NCBI GenBank assembly: GCA_050739335.1
Contig: JBOIBB010000014.1
Location: 18,535 to 82,534, forward strand
Direction of reading: 5' to 3'
DNA: 64,000 nucleotides
From: Gammaproteobacteria bacterium
GTDB taxonomy: Bacteria > Pseudomonadota > Gammaproteobacteria > Natronospirales > REEB76
The stretch's first letter is position 1. Each line of letters starts with the position of its first letter. The notes beneath the pieces were generated by a model, which saw nothing but the letters and a program-made list of their open reading frames with translations, was not told where the DNA came from and ran no database searches. Positions 49,579 to 61,408 of the stretch are shown here, piece after piece. The translations under genes and the position numbers were made by a program.

Positions 49579-49654
49579 GCGGGAATAGCTCAGTTGGTAG
49601 AGCGCAACCTTGCCAAGGTTGAGGTCGCGAGTTCGAGCCTCGTTTCCCGCTCCA
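49579..49654 (+). tRNA. tRNA-Gly (anticodon GCC), CCA encoded
   Basis: The sequence is GCGGGAATAGCTCAGTTGGTAGAGCGCAACCTTGCCAAGGTTGAGGTCGCGAGTTCGAGCCTCGTTTCCCGCTCCA. The anticodon loop is TTGCCAA. Confidence 0.95.
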
Positions 49655-49765
49655 GATCCCTACCTCGGCCGCTCCGGGGACTTTTGTCTTTCACGGCCGC
49701 ACGCCTCGGATTCCGCTGGAAATACACCGGTGTGGTAAATTTCGCCGGTCTCTCGCTTCATGAAT

Positions 49766-49836
49766 GGCTAGGTGGCAGAGTGGTCATGCAGCGGCCTGCA
49801 AAGCCGTGTACGCCGGTTCGATTCCGACCCTAGCCT
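49766..49836 (+). tRNA. tRNA-Cys (anticodon GCA), no encoded CCA, one C.A mismatch in the T stem
   Basis: The sequence is GGCTAGGTGGCAGAGTGGTCATGCAGCGGCCTGCAAAGCCGTGTACGCCGGTTCGATTCCGACCCTAGCCT. It has a perfect 7-bp acceptor stem, anticodon loop CTGCAAA and discriminator U. It is followed by CGC rather than CCA. Confidence 0.85.
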
Positions 49837-49917
49837 CGCAGGTGTGCGATGTGTCCGCCGCGGTGGCGGCACTGGCATCAACAGGGAGTTGCAGTTTGGA
49901 GTTGCAATCCTAGTCCT

Positions 49918-52900
49918 ATGTATCTCTCGGTCCTCGGATCGCATGCCAGGATACACGGTACCGTCGAGGTGCCGAACTCCAAATACCATGCCCACCGTGC
50001 GTTGATCCTCGCCTCACTCGCCGACGGCGTGAGCCGCATCACCGGCCTCACCGACGCCCGTCATGTGCAATACACGATTCGCGTGCTGCGCACGCTTGGC
50101 ATTGACATCGAAATACGCCACGACACCTTCGTGGTGCACGGCGGCCGGTATCGCCCGCGCCGCAGCAGTGTCTCGGCAGGCAGCTCCGGCACCACTTTGT
50201 ATTTCATGCTGGGCCTCGCGGCACTCGCCGAAACCGACGTGATCGTGACGGGGCAGAAGTATTTCCAGCGCCGCCCGGTCGGCCCGTTGCTCGCGGCACT
50301 GCGGCAGATGGGCGTCGGGGTGAGCTCGGGCACGGACTGCCCGCCGTTCGCGGTGAAAGCCCGGCGGCCGCTCGGCGGCGAAGTGCACATCCCGGGAACC
50401 TTGTCACAGTGGATCTCGGGGCTGATCTTGCTCGCGCCGTTCGCCACGCACGCGACCACGGTTATCGTGGATGGCCCGTTCAACGAGCGCAATTACGTGG
50501 CGCTGACGGTGCGCATGATGCGCAGCTTCGGCCTCGAGGTCACCGCCAGCGCCGATGGCCGGCGCTACACGATTGCACCGGATCAGCGTGCGCATCCCGC
50601 GGACCTCGTGATCCCTCCGGACATCGGCTCGGCGGCATTCGGTGTGGCCGCCGCGGCCATGCATCCTGCGGATGTGCTGTTGCATGGTTTGCGTTGCGCG
50701 CGCGCCGCCGAGGTCGACCATCCGGAAGCCGGCTTCCTCGACATTGCCGCGGCCATGGGTCTGCCGATGCAGGTCGATGCGCGCGCCGGCGGTCTGCGCA
50801 TCGTGCACTCGGGCGTGCGGCTCAAGCCGGTGACCGTCGACTGCCGCGATCTGCCGGATATGCTGCCGGTGCTCTCCGGCATGGCGTGTTTCGCCGACGG
50901 CGAAACGGTATTCACCAACGTCGAACACGTGCGGCTCAAGGAATCCGACCGCGTAACCTCGATGCTGCAACTGAACAGCATGGGCGGCGACGTCGACTTC
51001 GACGGTTCGAGTCTGCGCGTACGTGGAGTGCACGCATTGCACGGGGCGGACCTCTCGAGCTTCAACGACCACCGCGTACTCATGTCGCTTGCGGTAACCG
51101 CTTCGGCCGCTGAAGGCCGCAGCACCTTGACCTATCCGAATGCCTACCGGATTTCCTATCCGCGCTTTCTCGAAGCCATGCATACCTTCGGACTCGACAT
51201 GCAGGTGGAGAAACAGCGACTCGCGGCGCACAGCGGCAAACCCAGCCGTCCGCTCATCGAGGACCAAGAGGCGGTGGAACGTGCGGCCGGGGTAACCGGC
51301 GAGGCCTGGGTACGGCGCTGGGCGAAAGAAAAACCCGACGAAGTCGCGGTCGCGGAGGCGCGGCCCGAGACCACGAGGTATATGACCTGGGCCGAACTCG
51401 ATGCGCGTGCCGACCGGGTGGCGGCGCTGCTGCTCACGCTCGGCGTCGGCGCCAAAGACCGGGTCGCGATCCAGCTCCCCAACTGGTCGGAGTTCGTCGC
51501 CATTACGGTGGGCGCGATGCGCATCGGTGCGGTCGTCTGCCCCATCATGCCGATTTTCCGTGAACGTGAAGTCGCGTTTGCGCTGTTCCGTTCGCGCGCG
51601 AAGATCTTCATCTTGCCCGAAGAGTTCCGCGGCCGACGCCATGCCGAGGAGGCCGCCGGGGCACTGGCCAAAACCCAGTCGGGAGGCAGCCGTCACCTTG
51701 GCCTCACCGACGTGTGTGTGATCGGCAACCGGCGCGCCAGTCAATCCTTGGCCGCCAGCACCGCGGTGCGCTGGCATGACTGGGACGCCGAGCTCGAAGC
51801 GGTGTCGGTCGATCGTTCCGCCATCGACGCGCGCCGCCCGCGGGCTGAAGGTCCAGCGCAGCTGCTGTTCACTTCCGGCACTTCGGGGGAGCCGAAGGGC
51901 GTTATCCACACACATGCGACACTCTCACGGGCGGCCGCGATGGAAGTACGGCACCTGGGGCTCGGCCAACACGAAGTGATCTACGTGCCTTCGCCGCTTG
52001 CCCATCAGACGGGATTTCTCTACGGCATGTGGCTCGCCTTTACGCTCGGTGCACCACAACTGTTGCAGCCGGTATGGGACGCGGAGCGTGCGCTCAACGT
52101 GCTGCGCGGCTGGAAAGGCACGTTCGTGCAGGCCGCCACCCCGTTTCTCACGGATCTGGTGAAGGCGGTCGAGGCGGGCGCCGCACCCGCGCCCAGCCTG
52201 CGCATTTTCGTCGCCACCGGCGCGGCTGTACCACGCACGCTCGCGGAACGCGCAACCCGCGTGCTCGGCACCGCCGTTTGTGGTGCGTTCGGAACCACCG
52301 AGACCTGTCTCGGCGCCCTGGCCGCACCCGGCGACGCGCCGGTCAAGGTTTGGGGCACCGATGGGCGCGCGCTTGCGGGTGTCGAACTGCGGATCGTGGA
52401 CGAGCACGGCAAACGCCTGGCGCCCGGCGCCGAGGGTAACCTCGAGCTCAAAAGCGGCACGATGTTTGCGGGCTACCTCGATCGTCCGGACCTGACGCCG
52501 GCGGCCTTCACGGCCGACGGCTGGTACCGCACCGGCGATCTCGCCACCCTCGACGAAGAAGGTTTTCTGCGCATTACCGGCCGGGTGCGCGATGTCATCA
52601 ACCGCGGTGGCGAGAAAATCCCGGTAGCGGAAATCGAGGAGCTCTTGTATCGTCATCCGGACATCGAAGACGTAGCGGTCGTTGCCATGCCGGACGCGCG
52701 TCTGGGCGAGCGCGGCTGTGCCTTCGTGGTGTCCCGCAAGAGTAGTGCACTCACGTTTGCCGGCATGCAGCAATACCTCGATGCGCACCACGTATCGAAA
52801 CACTACTGGCCGGAACGTCTCGAACTGATCGACGTGATCCCGCGCAACGCCGTCGGCAAGATCCAGAAATTCGTGCTACGCGAACGCGCCAAGAATCTCG

Positions 52901-52938
52901 TAAGCCAGCGCCAAGCTGCCAAACAGGAGAACCATTGA
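49918..52938 (+). CDS. Fusion protein: an N-terminal EPSP-synthase-like enolpyruvyl-transferase-fold domain and a C-terminal AMP-forming acyl-CoA synthetase
   Basis: The N-domain carries VPNSKYHAHRAL, QRRPVGPLL, LSQWISGLILLAP, DLPDMLPVL, RLKESDRV and NDHRVLMSL, which correspond to the EPSPS blocks PGSKSxSNR, ERP, SSQ, D313, KETDR and DHRMAM. The C-domain carries LLFTSGTSGEPKGVIHTH, GAFGTTE, YRTGDL, GRVRDVINRGGEKI and PRNAVGKIQK. The start is set at ATG 49918 (MYLSVLGS..). Confidence 0.85.
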   Translation: MYLSVLGSHARIHGTVEVPNSKYHAHRALILASLADGVSRITGLTDARHVQYTIRVLRTLGIDIEIRHDTFVVHGGRYRPRRSSVSAGSSGTTLYFMLGLAALAETDVIVTGQKYFQRRPVGPLLAALRQMGVGVSSGTDCPPFAVKARRPLGGEVHIPGTLSQWISGLILLAPFATHATTVIVDGPFNERNYVALTVRMMRSFGLEVTASADGRRYTIAPDQRAHPADLVIPPDIGSAAFGVAAAAMHPADVLLHGLRCARAAEVDHPEAGFLDIAAAMGLPMQVDARAGGLRIVHSGVRLKPVTVDCRDLPDMLPVLSGMACFADGETVFTNVEHVRLKESDRVTSMLQLNSMGGDVDFDGSSLRVRGVHALHGADLSSFNDHRVLMSLAVTASAAEGRSTLTYPNAYRISYPRFLEAMHTFGLDMQVEKQRLAAHSGKPSRPLIEDQEAVERAAGVTGEAWVRRWAKEKPDEVAVAEARPETTRYMTWAELDARADRVAALLLTLGVGAKDRVAIQLPNWSEFVAITVGAMRIGAVVCPIMPIFREREVAFALFRSRAKIFILPEEFRGRRHAEEAAGALAKTQSGGSRHLGLTDVCVIGNRRASQSLAASTAVRWHDWDAELEAVSVDRSAIDARRPRAEGPAQLLFTSGTSGEPKGVIHTHATLSRAAAMEVRHLGLGQHEVIYVPSPLAHQTGFLYGMWLAFTLGAPQLLQPVWDAERALNVLRGWKGTFVQAATPFLTDLVKAVEAGAAPAPSLRIFVATGAAVPRTLAERATRVLGTAVCGAFGTTETCLGALAAPGDAPVKVWGTDGRALAGVELRIVDEHGKRLAPGAEGNLELKSGTMFAGYLDRPDLTPAAFTADGWYRTGDLATLDEEGFLRITGRVRDVINRGGEKIPVAEIEELLYRHPDIEDVAVVAMPDARLGERGCAFVVSRKSSALTFAGMQQYLDAHHVSKHYWPERLELIDVIPRNAVGKIQKFVLRERAKNLVSQRQAAKQENH

Positions 52939-54134
52939 TGGTCACGATCAGCCCCGACGGACGTGGCAGCGAACTCGACCCGGACCGCTACCAGGCGCTG
53001 CTGGCCGAAGTCACCGCTTGGGTCACCGCACCCGGCGAACAATGGGCCGAACGCATCGAGTCCTCGACGGCACTGGTGCCCGAGGAGCTCTGGGACGAGC
53101 TCAAGCAGCGCGGTTACCTGTCGCTCGCGGCACCGGTGGAACTCGGCGGACGTGGCTTGAGCTTCGTCCAGTGGATGGGCTTGATGGAAGTATTTTCGCG
53201 CTCGCATGCCTCGATCCGCATGATCGTGCACGTGGTAAACGGCACTTGGCGCGCCATGAATCCTTTTGCCAATGCGGCCCAGCGCCAGCAATTCGTGCGC
53301 CGCTCGATCGCGGGTGACATTAAGATCGCCTTCACCCTGACCGAACCCGACAACGGTACCGGCGCGGACCTGACCTGCCAGGTACGCCGCGATGGCGAGC
53401 GCTATCTGCTGACCGGCAAGAAACATCTCATCACCTTCGGCTTGCGCTGTGATTACTGGCTGCTGTTCGCGCGCCTCCAGGGCAGCAAGGGCAAGGACGG
53501 CACCTTGGCTCTGCTCGTTGACCGGCACGCACCCGGCGTGCGCACCGAGGACACCTCGGCGTCCATGGGTGTGCATGGCACGGATCATGCTGCGTTATTC
53601 TTCACCGACACGCCGGTGCCGGTCGCGCAGCGGCTCGGCCGCGAGGGCGATGGACTCACGGTGGCACTCGGCGGTTTCCTTACGCCGAGCCGTATCTCGG
53701 TCGCGATGAGTTGCGTGGGTCTGGCCGAGCGTGCCCAGGAACTCGCAATTGATTACGCACTCAAGCGCGTGACCTTCGGCCAACCGCTCGGCACGCGCCA
53801 AGCCATTGCCTTCATGATTGCCGAGAATGCCGCGGACATTGCCGCGAGCCGGGCGCTCACTCTCGAGGCCGCGCGCTGTTGGCAGGCCGGCGAGGAACGT
53901 GCCAGTGCGCTTTCGTCGATGGCCAAGATGACCGCGGTCGACATGCTCACGCGCGTGACCGACAAGGCACTGCAAATACACGGCGGCCGGGGTTATATGC
54001 GCACCCACAGAATCGAGCGTGTCTATCGCGACGCACGAGCCCAGCGATTTGAAGAAGGCACCAACGAAATCCAGAAAACCGTCGTGGCCCGGGAGATTCT
54101 TGCCCGCGCTGCGCGTCACAAGGACTCACAATGA
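52938..54134 (+). CDS. Acyl-CoA dehydrogenase family protein
   Basis: The ~398-aa ACAD architecture ends in the C-terminal motif RIERVYRDARAQRFEEGTNEIQ. An AGGAGA RBS lies 7 nt upstream, and the ATG overlaps the upstream TGA by 1 nt. Confidence 0.85.
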   Translation: MVTISPDGRGSELDPDRYQALLAEVTAWVTAPGEQWAERIESSTALVPEELWDELKQRGYLSLAAPVELGGRGLSFVQWMGLMEVFSRSHASIRMIVHVVNGTWRAMNPFANAAQRQQFVRRSIAGDIKIAFTLTEPDNGTGADLTCQVRRDGERYLLTGKKHLITFGLRCDYWLLFARLQGSKGKDGTLALLVDRHAPGVRTEDTSASMGVHGTDHAALFFTDTPVPVAQRLGREGDGLTVALGGFLTPSRISVAMSCVGLAERAQELAIDYALKRVTFGQPLGTRQAIAFMIAENAADIAASRALTLEAARCWQAGEERASALSSMAKMTAVDMLTRVTDKALQIHGGRGYMRTHRIERVYRDARAQRFEEGTNEIQKTVVAREILARAARHKDSQ

Positions 54135-54940
54135 GCAGCAAAGTGGCGGTGATCACGGGTGCGTCGCGCGGTATTGGCGCACGCGTGGCTGAGATGCTCG
54201 CGGCCGAGGGTGCCGCGGTCGTGGTCAATTACAAAAAAAACGCGGAGCTCGCCGAGCAGATCGTGGCCAAACTGCGCACCTTGGGCGGTGACGGCGTCAC
54301 CGTTCAGGCCGATGTGGAAAACCCCGATGAAGTGCGGCGTATCTTCGACGTGGCCGCCGAAAAATACGGACGTCTCGACTATTTCGTCAACAACGCCGCC
54401 GCCGCGGCCTTCAAGCGCATCCTCGACCTGAAGCCGAACCATCTGGACCGTTCCTACGCGATGAACCTGCGCCCGTTCGTGCTTGGCGCCCAGGAAGCCG
54501 TCAAGCTCATGGACCGGGGCGGACGGATCGTGGCGCTCACCAGCTACGGCAGCTTGCATGCGTACCCAACCTATGCGGCACTCGGTTCGTACAAAGCCGC
54601 CATCGAGAGCTTTATCCGCTACATGGCGGTGGAATTTGCGCCTTACGGTATCAATGTCAACGGTGTGAGTGGCGGCTTGATCGAGTCGGACTCCTTGCAC
54701 TATTTCTACGAACGTGTGCCCGGGCAGGCACCTATGCAGTCGGTACTCGTGAAAATCCCGCTGCAACGGCCCGGTACGGTCGACGAGATGGCGCACGCCG
54801 TCATGTTTCTGCTCGGCGACAAGTCGAGCTATATCACCGGGCAGACGCTGGTGGTCGATGGCGGACTGTCGGTGATCGCACCGCCGTTTTGGTCCGAAAC
54901 CCACGCGCCACTGAGTCTCCCCGAGCGTCCGCACCGCTGA
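54131..54940 (+). CDS. SDR-family enoyl-thioester reductase-like protein (FabL/ChcA-like)
   Basis: The cofactor motif is VITGASRGIGARV and NNAA is present. The active-site spacing is Y-x6-K (YAALGSYK), as in FabI/FabL enoyl reductases, rather than the classical YxxxK. The start overlaps the upstream stop (ATGA). Confidence 0.8.
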   Translation: MSSKVAVITGASRGIGARVAEMLAAEGAAVVVNYKKNAELAEQIVAKLRTLGGDGVTVQADVENPDEVRRIFDVAAEKYGRLDYFVNNAAAAAFKRILDLKPNHLDRSYAMNLRPFVLGAQEAVKLMDRGGRIVALTSYGSLHAYPTYAALGSYKAAIESFIRYMAVEFAPYGINVNGVSGGLIESDSLHYFYERVPGQAPMQSVLVKIPLQRPGTVDEMAHAVMFLLGDKSSYITGQTLVVDGGLSVIAPPFWSETHAPLSLPERPHR

Positions 54941-54947
54941 GCTTGAG

Positions 54948-57020
54948 ATGCTCGAGCATGTGTTCAGGCCGGCAGCGATCGGCGGCCTCGCGCTCCGCCA
55001 CCGCATCGTCGTGGGCTCGATGCATTTGAACCTCGAGACCGCCGGTGACGGCTCGGCCCTCGCGGCGTTCTACGTCGAGCGCGTGCAGGGCGGCGCGGAC
55101 CTCGTAGTCACTGGCGGCATCGCCGTGAACCGGGCCGGAGCGGGAAGCCGCGGTTACGCGGTGCTGACCAAAGCAAAAGACCGCAGGCGGCTCGCGCATG
55201 TTGCCCAGGCGGTGCACGCCGCGGGCGGCCACATCGCCTTGCAGCTCTTTCACGCCGGCCGTTACGCATTCCATGAAGCTTTTGGCATAACGCCCCGTGC
55301 ACCTTCCGCCGTTTATAGCCGCTTCTCGCGCTGTCTGCCCCAGGCTATGAGCGTCGACGAAATCAACGCGACCATCGCGGATTTCGCCGCCGGTGCACAA
55401 GCTGCACGCGAGCTTGGCTTCGATGCCGTGGAAATCATGGGTTCCGAAGGCTATCTCATCAATCAATTCGCCTCGCCGGTGACAAATTTGCGCACCGACG
55501 ATTGGGGCGGCTCAGCCGAGGCGCGCCGACGCTTCCCCCTGGCGGTGTTGGCGGCGGTGCGCGCCGCCGTGGGCGCGAATTTCCCGGTCATCGCCCGCAC
55601 ATCCGGCAATGACTTGATGCAAGATTCCTCCACTGGGCAGGAGCTCGATGTGCTCACCGTAGCCTTGGCGGAAAGTGGGGCCGACGCGATCAACGTAGGC
55701 ATCGGCTGGCACGAGTCGCATACGCCCTCGGTACAGGCGCTAGTGCCACATGGCATGTGGATCTCAACCGCTGCGCGCATGCGCAGGGCGCTGCGTGCGG
55801 CCGGCTCACCGATACCCGTCATCGGCTCGAACCGCATCAATTCGCTGATACAGGCCGAAGAGTTCCTGGCCGCCGACGCCATTGACTTGGTGTCGATGGC
55901 GCGGCCGTTCCTCGCCGACTCCGCAATCATTGCGAAGTCGCGCACCGGACAGTTCAATTTCGTCGACACCTGCATCGGCTGCAACCAGGCATGCATCGAC
56001 CGCTCGTTTGGCAGCGAACGCGTTTCCTGCCTGGTGAACCCGCGTGCCGGACACGAACTCGAATTCCCACTGGTAACCGCGGCGGGGCAGGCCACACGTG
56101 TCGCGGTGGTAGGCTCGGGTCCGGCGGGTATACAGGCCGCGGCCACGCTCGCGGTCCACGGCATCGCCGTCGACCTATACGAGAGCGAGGCGGGAATCGG
56201 CGGGCAGTTCCGCCTGGCGTGCCAAGTCCCCGGCAAGGCCGATTACGGCGAAACCATCCGTTATTTCCGTCACGAACTCGAGCGGCTTGGCGTTACGGTA
56301 CGGACCCGGGTGCGGGCGACGGTAGAACAGCTCGGCACTTACGCACACGTGATCGTGGCCTGCGGCGTCACACCGCGGCGCGTGGACATTCCGGGCGCCG
56401 ATCTGCCGCAAGTCATTTCGTACCGCGAAGCTTTCGATCGGGCGTCTACGCTTGGATCGCGTGTCGCCATCATCGGCGCGGGCGGCATCGCCATCGATCT
56501 CGCCGAACTGCTGGTGCATCCCGATGACACCGAACTCGACGGTGCCGACGCGCGCCGCAGGTTTGCCGAAGATCACGGACTGGTACCCGTGGACGCTGCC
56601 CACGTACGGACGCAGCGCGCGGTACCGCAGGTCACACTCATGCGCCGCTCGGGCAAGATCGGAGCCGGTATCGGGCCCTCGACCCGGTGGGCCGTGCTTG
56701 CGTCGATTCGTTCAGCAGGCGTCAAAACTTTCACCGGAGTGGAGTACCGGCGAATTACCCACGAGGGTGTTTGGATTGTGCCGCCACCGACAGAAACTGC
56801 TGCGATCCCTCAAGAAACTTTGGTTGCCGCCGATCAGGTAGTAATCGCCGCCGGTCAGGTACCCGACGACCATTTGGCCAAAGAACTGGATCGTGCCGGT
56901 ATCGCAAATACGGTAATCGGCGGTGCCCGTGACACCTCGGGCCTCAATGCCGTACGGGCGTTTGACGAGGGCTTGCGCTGCGCAGCCGCACTTGCCGCGA
57001 GGCTCAACCAGCGAAATTGA
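54948..57020 (+). CDS. FadH-like 2,4-dienoyl-CoA reductase (OYE TIM barrel, 4Fe-4S cluster, FAD/NAD(P) domains)
   Basis: The 690-aa protein has an OYE-like N-terminus, the Cys cluster motif CIGCNQACIDR...C and two dinucleotide folds (VAVVGSGPAGIQAA, VAIIGAGGIAIDLA). Confidence 0.85.
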   Translation: MLEHVFRPAAIGGLALRHRIVVGSMHLNLETAGDGSALAAFYVERVQGGADLVVTGGIAVNRAGAGSRGYAVLTKAKDRRRLAHVAQAVHAAGGHIALQLFHAGRYAFHEAFGITPRAPSAVYSRFSRCLPQAMSVDEINATIADFAAGAQAARELGFDAVEIMGSEGYLINQFASPVTNLRTDDWGGSAEARRRFPLAVLAAVRAAVGANFPVIARTSGNDLMQDSSTGQELDVLTVALAESGADAINVGIGWHESHTPSVQALVPHGMWISTAARMRRALRAAGSPIPVIGSNRINSLIQAEEFLAADAIDLVSMARPFLADSAIIAKSRTGQFNFVDTCIGCNQACIDRSFGSERVSCLVNPRAGHELEFPLVTAAGQATRVAVVGSGPAGIQAAATLAVHGIAVDLYESEAGIGGQFRLACQVPGKADYGETIRYFRHELERLGVTVRTRVRATVEQLGTYAHVIVACGVTPRRVDIPGADLPQVISYREAFDRASTLGSRVAIIGAGGIAIDLAELLVHPDDTELDGADARRRFAEDHGLVPVDAAHVRTQRAVPQVTLMRRSGKIGAGIGPSTRWAVLASIRSAGVKTFTGVEYRRITHEGVWIVPPPTETAAIPQETLVAADQVVIAAGQVPDDHLAKELDRAGIANTVIGGARDTSGLNAVRAFDEGLRCAAALAARLNQRN

Positions 57021-57283
57021 TCCGCCGGAGTTCCCCAAGCTCGTGCGGGTGGGTATGCCTGCCCTGAGGTCGGCAGCCGTTCGAGCTTCGATGCGTGGAC
57101 GATGCGGCCATGAAACCTCGCGTCGTTCATGCGAAAATTCGCCCTGTGGAGCACGCTCGGTTTTCATCCTTGAGCCCAGCGCGTCTGGGCGCCGGTGGGA
57201 CGCCGCCCGCGACGCGAACGTTGGCGGAATAGGGCGGTCCCCACAGCCAGGATCGATGGCAAAAGTTACGCATATGCATGCAG

Positions 57284-57370
57284 GCCCGGGTGGCGGAACG
57301 GGTAGACGCAAGGGACTTAAAATCCCTTGGCCGCAAGGCCGTGCCGGTTCGAGTCCGGCCCCGGGCACCA
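57284..57370 (+). tRNA. tRNA-Leu (anticodon TAA), long variable arm, CCA encoded
   Basis: The sequence is GCCCGGGTGGCGGAACGGGTAGACGCAAGGGACTTAAAATCCCTTGGCCGCAAGGCCGTGCCGGTTCGAGTCCGGCCCCGGGCACCA. Confidence 0.95.
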
Positions 57371-59700: not shown

Positions 59701-60164
59701 CTCCGGCACGGCGGCGACGGCTGATTATCGTGCTGGTACTCGTGGTGGGTGTGGCCATCGCGGCCACGCTGGGGCTGAAAGCCTTCCGCAAAAACCTCTT
59801 GTACTACTTCACGCCGGAACAAGTGGCGAAGGGCGACGCCCATCCCGGGCAATCGTTTCGCATGGGCGGCCTGGTCGCGATGGGCAGTATTCAGCGTGCG
59901 CCTGGCAGCATGACCGTGCACTTCACGGTCACCGACATGGAACGCTCGATCCCGGTGGTCTACACAGGAATTCTGCCGGACCTGTTCGCGCAGGGGCAGG
60001 GCATCGTCGTCTATGGCACGCTGCAGAAAAACGGCGAGTTTGTCGCCAATCAGGTGCTTGCCAAGCATGACTCCAAATACATGCCGCCGGAAGTCGAAGC
60101 CGACATCAAGAGGGCCAAGGCCGAACAACTCGCCAAGAGCGCCCACGAGGCCAGCGTCGAATAA
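59697..60164 (+). CDS. ccmE: Cytochrome c-type biogenesis heme chaperone CcmE
   Basis: It has an N-terminal anchor (MTPARRRRLIIVLVLVVG) and the heme-binding His motif LAKHDSKYMPPEV. The start is at ATG 59697, not 59574. Confidence 0.9.
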   Translation: MTPARRRRLIIVLVLVVGVAIAATLGLKAFRKNLLYYFTPEQVAKGDAHPGQSFRMGGLVAMGSIQRAPGSMTVHFTVTDMERSIPVVYTGILPDLFAQGQGIVVYGTLQKNGEFVANQVLAKHDSKYMPPEVEADIKRAKAEQLAKSAHEASVE

Positions 60165-61084
60165 ACGCGCCGGTAGTCACGCGGCGTTTTCCCCGTGGCC
60201 TTGCGGAACACCGTCGTGAAGTAGCTGTGCGCACGGAAGCCGCAACGGCGCACGATACCGTTGATCGGCGTCGCGGTCCGGGTGAGGAGGTGCTTGGCGA
60301 GATCCAGGCGGTGCTCGAGCACATACTCGCGCGGCGAGAGCCCGATCTTGCGTTTGAAGCAGCGGTGAAAATGAAAACGGCTGAGGTGCGCGGCACACGC
60401 CATGTCTTCCAGAGGCAGATCCCGATCCAGATGTTCGTGGATGTACACGATGGCCTTGCCGAGATTGGAATCCAAGCTGCCGGCATCGGCATAGTGGGGC
60501 GCCTGCGGTTCCTGGAAATAGACTTCGGCAAGATGGCTCACGAGCAACATGGTGAAGGACTGCAGGTAACCGGGGCTCGCATCGTTGCCACCGTTCGTCA
60601 GCACCCCGGCAATCCGCCGGCCAATTTGCGCAATGAGCGGATCATTGAACACAACATTGTCGAGCACACCGCGGCGCGGTACCACGAACTTCATGCTTTG
60701 TTCGGTTTCGCGCAGATACGCACTGCTGATATGCAGTTGAATCAATTCAATCGGTCCGTCCCACTGCCAAGTGACAGCCCGATTGGCCGGCACGACGGAG
60801 ACTGCTCCGGAGAACAGCAAGGCCGTATCCTGGTATTCGGCCAGCCCCCGGGTAAGCCGCACACCGTCGCCGGACAGCACCACCGTGACACACGGATCGG
60901 GAATCGCCGGCAGACTGGCACGGCCAGCCGGCATGCGGTACACCCGTGCGGTTGTGGAAATCCAGTGCGGGAAAATCCCGGTACTGGAGTAAACCGGCAG
61001 GTTCGGCATGTAGCGTTCCAGACAAGAGCTCTGGACCATACCCGGAATTTTCCCGGCCGGCTTGTTAGGTTCAAAAACGTGCAT
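60050..61084 (-). CDS. AraC-family transcriptional regulator with a cupin-like N-terminal domain
   Basis: The C-terminal double HTH is AAHLSRFHFHRCFKRKIGLSPREYVLEHRL...RCGFRAHSYFTTVFRKATGKTPRDYRR. The start is set at ATG 61084. The first in-frame stop is at 60050, so the 3' end runs 115 nt antisense into ccmE. Confidence 0.8.
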   Translation of the reverse strand: MHVFEPNKPAGKIPGMVQSSCLERYMPNLPVYSSTGIFPHWISTTARVYRMPAGRASLPAIPDPCVTVVLSGDGVRLTRGLAEYQDTALLFSGAVSVVPANRAVTWQWDGPIELIQLHISSAYLRETEQSMKFVVPRRGVLDNVVFNDPLIAQIGRRIAGVLTNGGNDASPGYLQSFTMLLVSHLAEVYFQEPQAPHYADAGSLDSNLGKAIVYIHEHLDRDLPLEDMACAAHLSRFHFHRCFKRKIGLSPREYVLEHRLDLAKHLLTRTATPINGIVRRCGFRAHSYFTTVFRKATGKTPRDYRRVYSTLASWALLASCSALALLMSASTSGGMYLESCLAST

Positions 61085-61408
61085 GGCTTCACCCCGACGC
61101 GATCCTGTGGCAGAACTACCCAAAGCGGCTCAAGTCTAGCAGGTTCTAGTTGTCTGCAAACCAGCCCCAAAGTGATGGCTCGAGGTCCAGGCTTGCGCCG
61201 TTGCGCCCTGCATGGTCGCCATCCGCAGCTGCTGTACTGGCGGCGCGCACGTACCGAATCCCGGTGCAAATCCGCGGCCCGGCACATCACGCACGCCGTG
61301 CATCATGGTGTGCCCCAGTCGAATTGAGTACAATCCCGCCGCAGTTTTTTCGTGCGGCGTGAGCAGCGCAAGGGCCGCCGCAGCGACGCGGCATTCACGG
61401 CAGTCTCC

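Follow-up and report, generated by a model that had tools for sequence, protein, structure and literature searches.

The 64,000-nucleotide stretch of gammaproteobacterial DNA analysed here (contig JBOIBB010000014.1, positions 18,535 to 82,534; hereafter, the window) carries a 1006-amino-acid open reading frame (ORF) in which a domain resembling 5-enolpyruvylshikimate-3-phosphate synthase (EPSP synthase or EPSPS; AroA) is joined to an acyl-coenzyme A (acyl-CoA) ligase. This ORF is very probably the first gene of a cassette leading from shikimate to cyclohexanecarboxyl-CoA (CHC-CoA), in the common fused form represented by PlmJK and MycA4. We base this assignment on its homology to these two proteins, on its operon partners, and on the occurrence of the same cassette in gene clusters for products that contain the cyclohexanecarboxylic (CHC) unit. 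The fusion is real and under selection, and it is the predominant and already named form of a known cassette, not a new architecture. The new points are the gammaproteobacterial host and the remodelled substrate pocket of the EPSPS-like half, which, judged by its residues, is a neofunctionalised AroA paralogue and not an EPSP synthase. The fused ORF, its parts, and the three genes that follow it are as follows:

49918..52938, plus strand: fused ORF of 1006 aa that runs from the EPSPS-like domain through the linker to the acyl-CoA ligase; homologous to PlmJK and MycA4
49918..51192, plus strand: EPSP-synthase-fold domain, aa 1-425, in a clade distinct from ordinary AroA
51193..51312, plus strand: inter-domain linker, aa 426-465 (40 aa), hypervariable in sequence and length
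51313..52935, plus strand: acyl-CoA ligase of the ANL family, aa 466-1006; every core motif present
52935..54134, plus strand: acyl-CoA-dehydrogenase-family (ACAD) gene with all three ACAD domains; PlmL/AnsL by operon position
54131..54940, plus strand: short-chain dehydrogenase/reductase (SDR), an enoyl reductase with an adh_short_C2 domain; ChcA-type by position; nearest NCBIfam model FabL-like
54948..57020, plus strand: old-yellow-enzyme (OYE) flavin mononucleotide (FMN) plus pyridine-nucleotide-disulfide reductase protein (Oxidored_FMN, Pyr_redox_2); AnsM/PlmM position

The initial annotation of this locus had described a single ORF joining an EPSPS-like and an acyl-CoA ligase domain, and both the reading frame and the Pfam domains agree with it. 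The frame is open on the plus strand from 49849 (the first ATG) or 49918 and ends at 52938. The start at 49918 is the correct one, since the MxLxVxG N-terminus that it gives is nearly invariant among 58 homologs, the public protein P0001 is identical across all 1006 aa, and the alternative start lies only 12 nt past the end of tRNA-Cys (49837). Three Pfam domains are recognised, namely EPSP_synthase (aa 10-421; E 5e-79), AMP-binding (aa 466-854; E 9e-71), and AMP-binding_C (aa 905-981). All of the motifs quoted earlier (VPNSKYHAHR, QRRP, SQW, DLPDM, RLKESDR, DHRVLM, and GKIQK) are found in the translation, and the change from LPGSKS to VPNSKY is likewise borne out, as Escherichia coli AroA has LPGSKS. 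A minus-strand ORF (50404-51915) and several others, 150-500 aa long, overlap the fusion in different frames or strands; these are the usual shadow ORFs of high-GC DNA, without independent support.

The strongest evidence for the pathway comes from two fused homologs named by their depositors, PlmJK of Streptomyces sp. HK803 (AAQ84158.1; phoslactomycin cluster) and MycA4 of Streptomyces flaveolus (AFG19409.1; ansatrienin cluster), with which the window protein shares 59% and 61% identity, respectively, over its full length and collinearly across both halves. MycA1-A4 are reported to make the CHC unit from shikimate, asuB1-B4 have been assigned to cyclohexylcarbonyl-CoA formation in asukamycin biosynthesis (PMC12720273), and the phoslactomycin polyketide synthase (PKS) of Streptomyces platensis is described as loading cyclohexanecarboxyl-CoA (PMC7496768). 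S. platensis itself carries the fusion. The homologous cassette is thus present in organisms or clusters with CHC products, namely the S. flaveolus myc cluster, the phoslactomycin producers S. platensis and HK803, and a further Streptomyces locus (L085), where it lies directly after a type II DAHP synthase and amid genes of the 3-amino-5-hydroxybenzoic acid (AHBA) type, an adenylation-peptidyl carrier protein-thioesterase gene, and an acyltransferase. The gene set of this locus, which is of the ansatrienin type, matches parts described for the myc cluster. If the name PlmJK is read as denoting the fusion, it implies that the two halves would correspond to AnsJ and AnsK of the Streptomyces collinus cassette. 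An earlier assignment of the EPSPS homologue to AnsL was dropped, as the deposited name points to AnsJ plus AnsK.

The operon context points the same way. The fusion, the ACAD gene, and the SDR gene overlap stop to start, with the ACAD ATG at 52938 within the TGATG of the fusion stop and the SDR start within an ATGA at the ACAD stop, and the fourth gene begins 8 nt after the third. The FMN-domain reductase is of the 2,4-dienoyl-CoA reductase/BaiCD-like kind (FMN/Fe-S type). All four genes of the CHC-CoA cassette are present in the window. The earlier proposal that both halves serve one shikimate-derived pathway, that of CHC-CoA, therefore holds, given the agreement among the operon partners, PlmJK/MycA4, and the CHC-product clusters. 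On the other hand, the description of the halves as normally unrelated enzymes does not stand, since hundreds of genomes have them side by side or fused within one pathway.

The distribution of the fusion was examined in the 80 best species-representative loci and in the protein databases. All 120 best database clusters share the same three-domain architecture at about 1000 aa, and the clade motif SKYH[ALE]HRAL occurs in at least 581 species-representative genomes, which include Eremiobacterota, Solirubrobacterales, Acidobacteriota, and Rhodanobacteraceae. The fused frame is uninterrupted in 70 of the 80 loci, and 52 of these have the same gene order as the window (fusion, ACAD, SDR, and OYE-type reductase). 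ACAD lies directly 3' of the fusion in 74/80, the SDR is present in 63/80, and the OYE-type reductase in 64/80. The rarity or novelty that had been implied for the fusion finds no support in this survey of domain architectures or in the long-standing deposition of PlmJK. The uninterrupted frame in most of these loci also speaks against a frameshift or stop splitting the ORF, which had been named as a possible refutation.

Departures from this arrangement were seen in a few relatives. Three loci (L087, L048, and L069) are split at the linker; in L087, from a Rhodanobacteraceae metagenome-assembled genome (MAG), the halves are genes of 444 and 541 aa with overlapping ends, and two other loci (L007 and L047) have an in-frame stop. 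The cassette adjoins FabH in L086 and ketoacyl synthases (KS) in L003 and L087. In the last two, both Rhodanobacteraceae MAGs (L003, 1-20253; L087, 1-10973), FabB/F-type ketoacyl synthases lie beside or within the cassette together with a MaoC dehydratase and a second AMP-ligase, a context that suggests a dedicated elongation system for a cyclohexyl starter. Arthrobacter and Cellulomonas cassettes have no SDR gene (9/80 loci). In Arthrobacter caoxuetaonis (L004; CP099466, 10001-16260) and in L002, the other Arthrobacter-type locus inspected, the cassette adjoins the str ribosomal-protein operon, and that of L004 sits between the S10 and str operons, an odd site for an accessory pathway. Phaeacidiphilus oryzae has two differing fused paralogues, P0094 and P0355 (1010 and 1032 aa), on the same 6.86-Mb contig and thus in one genome. 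Among plasmids, PLSDB holds no clade member and only ordinary aroA at about 30% identity.

It is important to consider how the EPSPS-like half differs from EPSP synthase. Its fold is that of PF00275, with two domains, as indicated by the Pfam match, by sequence matches to EPSP synthase structures in the PDB (E-values of 1e-42 to 4e-48), and by a confident structural model. In its own numbering, it keeps K22, R27, G91, R119, S163, Q164, Y193, D314, K341, E342, R345, H385, and R386, and it has replacements at Y23, H24, H49, S89, Y95, L162, W165, and E190. An exhaustive search with this domain gave a clear break between a clade at or above 40% identity (more than 300 bits), which is a small set of fused and standalone members, and ordinary AroA at 30-36% identity (about 180-235 bits). 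In the alignment to E. coli AroA, whose numbering is used from here on, the clade keeps K22, R27, G96, R124, S170, Q171, Y200, D313, K340, E341, R344, H385, and R386 without exception. Among them, the phosphoenolpyruvate (PEP)-binding and catalytic residues K22, R124, D313, E341, R344, H385, and R386 are invariant in 120 fused homologs and 10 clade representatives, and the catalytic Asp/Glu, K22, and PEP-site Arg/His persist at identities as low as about 40%, in fused as well as standalone members. Other positions separate the 10 clade representatives from 88 ordinary AroA sequences, a set defined by the lack of the clade residue at 23, 172, and 197, so that the counts at those positions are partly circular and those at D49, R100, and S169 are independent:

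E. coli S23: Y in the clade; S in 82/88 ordinary AroA (partly circular)
E. coli D49: H or Q in the clade; D in 88/88 ordinary AroA
E. coli R100: Y or Q in the clade; R in 88/88 ordinary AroA
E. coli S169: L or M in the clade; S in 86/88 ordinary AroA
E. coli S197: E in the clade; S in 88/88 ordinary AroA (partly circular)

The window protein has Y, H, Y, L, and E at these five positions, all of which are replaced in 10/10 clade representatives, and N94S and F172W are also present in the clade. N336H, N26H, and K411I had been considered as diagnostic and were dropped because they are common to ordinary class II-like AroA. The loss of two serines and one arginine with the gain of one glutamate argues against a 3-phosphorylated acceptor, and the completeness of the PEP and acid/base residues speaks for catalysis having been retained. 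Consequently, the description of this half as catalytically intact-looking applies to the PEP-binding and catalytic residues and fails for the shikimate-3-phosphate side of the pocket. The suggestion that a shikimate-3-phosphate derivative might be the substrate is likewise opposed by the alignment, as every clade member has other residues, including one Glu, at the AroA-invariant positions around the site. No other EPSPS-like ORF or aroA lies within the window. P0135 from Anaerolineaceae and P0140 from Deltaproteobacteria, each a standalone protein of some 435 aa, carry Y23, W172, and E197 without D49H and N94S; P0135 retains D49 and N94, P0140 has K and D at those positions, and within the EPSPS-like family the two may represent a sister subclade or an intermediate one.

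The ligase half presents the adenylate-forming motifs that had been described, including the catalytic lysine. These are TSGTSGEPKG (652-661), GAFGTTE (789-795), YRTGDL (870-875), GRVRDVINRGGEKI (888-901), and GK (980-981), and the segments T652-G661, G789-E795, Y870-L875, G888-K900, and G980-K981 show little or no variation among the 58 homologs. PF00501, PF13193, and the C-terminal catalytic Lys are all present. The best NCBIfam model for this half is TIGR03208, the cyclohexanecarboxylate-CoA ligase AliA, which it matches with 484 bits against a cut-off of 792; it is related to this enzyme but distinct from it. An AlphaFold model of the full-length fusion, built on the 58 homologs, has a mean predicted local distance difference test (pLDDT) score of 87.6 and a predicted template modeling (pTM) score of 0.80. 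Both domains are confident, with pLDDT mostly above 90 in the EPSPS-like domain, and disorder is restricted to linker residues 434-447 (pLDDT below 50). The ligase half matches the fold of aryl-acid and benzoate-CoA ligases (TM 0.84-0.88), and the best 50 fold matches of the full model, all of them ligases, include no solved structure spanning both halves. The linker has a mean pairwise identity of 30%, indels, and not a single invariant column. The EPSPS-like domain is more conserved than the ligase, with mean pairwise identities of 68% versus 64% and invariant columns of 29% versus 21%.

Taken together, these features suggest a sequence of steps for the cassette. The ligase half would adenylate shikimate and form shikimoyl-CoA; the ACAD-like flavoprotein, which we equate with the "FAD-dependent dehydratase" that Skyrud et al. 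2020 name in their title, would carry out the dehydrations; and the SDR and FMN/Fe-S reductases would remove the double bonds, saturating the ring to give CHC-CoA. The EPSPS-like half, flexibly tethered beside the ligase, would act with PEP or phosphate on a shikimate-derived acceptor, which is most likely not phosphorylated, as judged from the remodelled pocket. A catalytic role for this half is favoured, with some reserve. A more specific version of it is doubtful: the domain would represent an enolpyruvyl transferase class of its own, dependent on PEP and acting on non-phosphorylated shikimate or shikimoyl-CoA. The pocket with Glu for S197, Leu for S169, and R100 lost would accept a free hydroxyl, and the enolpyruvyl ether would leave as pyruvate, driving one of the three ring deoxygenations, for example the first 1,4-elimination, in analogy to the loss of pyruvate from chorismate. 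In the gammaproteobacterial host, CHC-CoA would most likely prime fatty-acid synthesis and yield omega-cyclohexyl fatty acids; lipid priming is preferred to an antibiotic use because no PKS, nonribosomal peptide synthetase (NRPS), or AHBA genes occur near the cassette in the window and because the S. collinus cassette reportedly yields such fatty acids in heterologous hosts.

The main rival to catalysis by the EPSPS-like half is that it serves as a non-catalytic module, binding shikimate or PEP, scaffolding, or regulating, that feeds or gates the ligase and leaves the pathway assignment unchanged, with all of the chemistry falling to the ligase, the flavin dehydratase, and the two reductases. 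We regard this as a minority possibility that deserves to be taken seriously. In its favour, a shikimoyl-CoA synthetase and an FAD-dependent dehydratase are the only activities that Skyrud et al. 2020 (ACS Catal 10:3360) put in their title, reconstitution reportedly needed no step from the EPSPS homologue, and the flexible tether to the ligase would suit substrate capture. Against it, a whole acid/base set is not expected in a domain that only binds, and the persistence of the catalytic and PEP-site residues, as well as the higher conservation of this domain relative to the ligase, speaks against such a role. Alternatively, the N-terminal half could be a housekeeping EPSP synthase fused by chance to a fatty-acid or aryl-acid CoA ligase. 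Its score against the NCBIfam aroA equivalog TIGR01356 (309 bits) exceeds the cut-off of 287.25, the PEP-site and catalytic residues are all kept, and nearly all public copies are named 3-phosphoshikimate 1-carboxyvinyltransferase. However, residues that are invariant or nearly so in ordinary AroA at positions 23, 49, 100, 169, and 197 are replaced in every clade member, ordinary AroA falls below the score break, the neighbours are CoA-thioester redox enzymes instead of aromatic amino-acid genes, and homologs lie inside antibiotic gene clusters. A housekeeping enzyme is thus highly improbable; we consider the TIGR01356 score a false positive of the model, and a score above the cut-off would also explain the naming of the public copies.

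A catabolic operon that, like the Ali/Bad pathway, breaks down cyclohexanecarboxylate, shikimate, or quinate by way of CoA thioesters would account for the affinity of the ligase half to the AliA-type model, for weak ACAD matches to cyclohexane-1-carbonyl-CoA dehydrogenase models, and for an Arthrobacter cassette outside secondary-metabolite clusters. It is nevertheless very unlikely: both the ligase and ACAD scores are far under the equivalog cut-offs, the hydratase, hydroxyacyl-CoA dehydrogenase, and ring-cleaving hydrolase partners were found neither in the window operon nor among the called genes of five inspected relatives' loci, the close homologs PlmJK and MycA4 are named biosynthetic proteins, and other copies adjoin FabH or KS genes. 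There is a negligible chance that two genes were joined into this ORF artificially, by an assembly error or a frameshift. The few relatives split at the linker or bearing an in-frame stop are what such an artefact would call on, but the uninterrupted fusion recurs in independent genomes, finished chromosomes included, and in independently deposited cluster sequences.

The location of the cassette is also informative. The flanking tRNA genes are:

49579-49654, plus strand: tRNA-Gly(GCC), left flank
49766-49837, plus strand: tRNA-Cys(GCA), left boundary of the cassette
57284..57370, plus strand: tRNA-Leu(TAA), right boundary of the cassette

The locus order is uvrC-pgsA, tRNA-Gly, tRNA-Cys, the 7.1-kb cassette, tRNA-Leu, and ccmABCDEF. 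The tRNA-Gly/Cys/Leu trio is normally contiguous in Gammaproteobacteria, and the placement looks like an insertion into this conserved block; no integrase was seen at the cassette (49579-57370). The window comes from an uncultured MAG labelled Gammaproteobacteria, and the closest copies of its fusion are in Rhodanobacteraceae MAGs; in other Rhodanobacteraceae the cassette lies at unrelated loci that lack tRNAs. A neighbor-joining tree (without support values) places the Rhodanobacteraceae copies in a single group that nests among Micrococcales sequences, which makes horizontal acquisition of the cassette from Micrococcales-like Actinobacteria likely, although not proven. Downstream, an AraC-family regulator gene (60050-61123, minus strand; HTH_18/HTH_AraC) occupies a 1.1-kb gap between ccmE and ccmF, an unusual interruption of ccm, and a plus-strand ORF overlapping it (60227-61327) has no family match and is probably a shadow.

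Besides the TIGR01356 score, several points weigh against the reading proposed here. The roles of S169, S170, and S197 in holding the 3-phosphate of shikimate-3-phosphate in the E. coli 1G6S complex, and of S23 and R27 in holding its carboxylate, are assumed here; a docking description groups the residues of the shikimate-3-phosphate site likewise (PMC12738574). The use of CHC-CoA in lipid priming is something that we infer. Regarding the origin of the cassette, a search for att-like direct repeats at the tRNA-flanked insertion returned only chance-level repeats and the shared tRNA T-arm, and the GC content of the operon (0.647 versus 0.618; second highest of 114 windows), with ordinary GC at third codon positions, is a weak sign of recent transfer. 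Finally, the step of the EPSPS-like half, or proof that it is dispensable, may already be in the literature (Skyrud 2020; Rui 2010; the phoslactomycin cluster paper).

These results emphasize that the signature Y23, H49, Y/Q100, L169, W172, and E197 separates the clade cleanly from true AroA. It exposes hundreds of public proteins as systematically misnamed, probably because of the TIGR01356 score above the cut-off, and it offers a way into the CHC-CoA pathway's least understood component, with an acceptor that is probably not O3-phosphorylated and PEP or phosphate chemistry that is probably retained. Furthermore, the presence of the cassette well outside Actinobacteria, including the gammaproteobacterial copy in a tRNA cluster, predicts omega-cyclohexyl lipids in lineages not yet checked for them. 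If the enolpyruvyl chemistry considered above were true, the capacity for cyclohexyl lipids would be common in acid-soil phyla, in view of the at least 581 species genomes.

Among known systems, PlmJK (1003 aa) and MycA4 (998 aa) are the nearest to the window fusion, with the same three-domain architecture and the shared signature motifs VPNSKYHAHR, SQW, NER.Y, LKESDR, and NDHRVLM. As in the window, ACAD, SDR, and FMN reductase genes come after the gene for a Streptomyces homologue that shares 85% identity with MycA4. PlmJK and MycA4 differ from the window fusion in the host, Streptomyces as opposed to a gammaproteobacterium, and in the setting, since the window cassette stands alone between tRNA genes, with no PKS/NRPS or AHBA genes close by. 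The S. collinus cassette, reportedly described by Cropp, Wilson and Reynolds in 2000 (Nat Biotechnol 18:980) as five genes (ansJ-ansK-ansL-chcA-ansM) leading from shikimate to CHC-CoA, is said to have given omega-cyclohexyl fatty acids in heterologous hosts. By that account, it has the same five enzyme functions as the window cassette; the first two would be encoded by separate genes in S. collinus, to judge from the name PlmJK, and they reside in one polypeptide in the window.

The comparison with the individual enzymes follows the two halves. AroA, the EPSP synthase (E. coli 1G6S; also class II enzymes, for example Streptococcus pneumoniae 1RF4), has its fold and its PEP and catalytic residues in common with the EPSPS-like half, which differs from it in its low identity, its separate clade, its pathway context, and the changes S23Y, D49H, N94S, R100Y/Q, S169L, F172W, and S197E that are fixed in the clade. 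The ligase half shares the ANL fold and core motifs with AliA, CahJ, DhbE, and benzoate-CoA ligase; in contrast to these enzymes, it carries an N-terminal EPSPS-like domain, and its presumed substrate is shikimate instead of CHC or an aromatic acid. In MurA and in NikO of nikkomycin biosynthesis, the EPSP synthase fold has been recruited to move the enolpyruvyl group from PEP to other hydroxyl acceptors, and they set a precedent for the EPSPS-like half, in which enolpyruvyl transfer is hypothetical.

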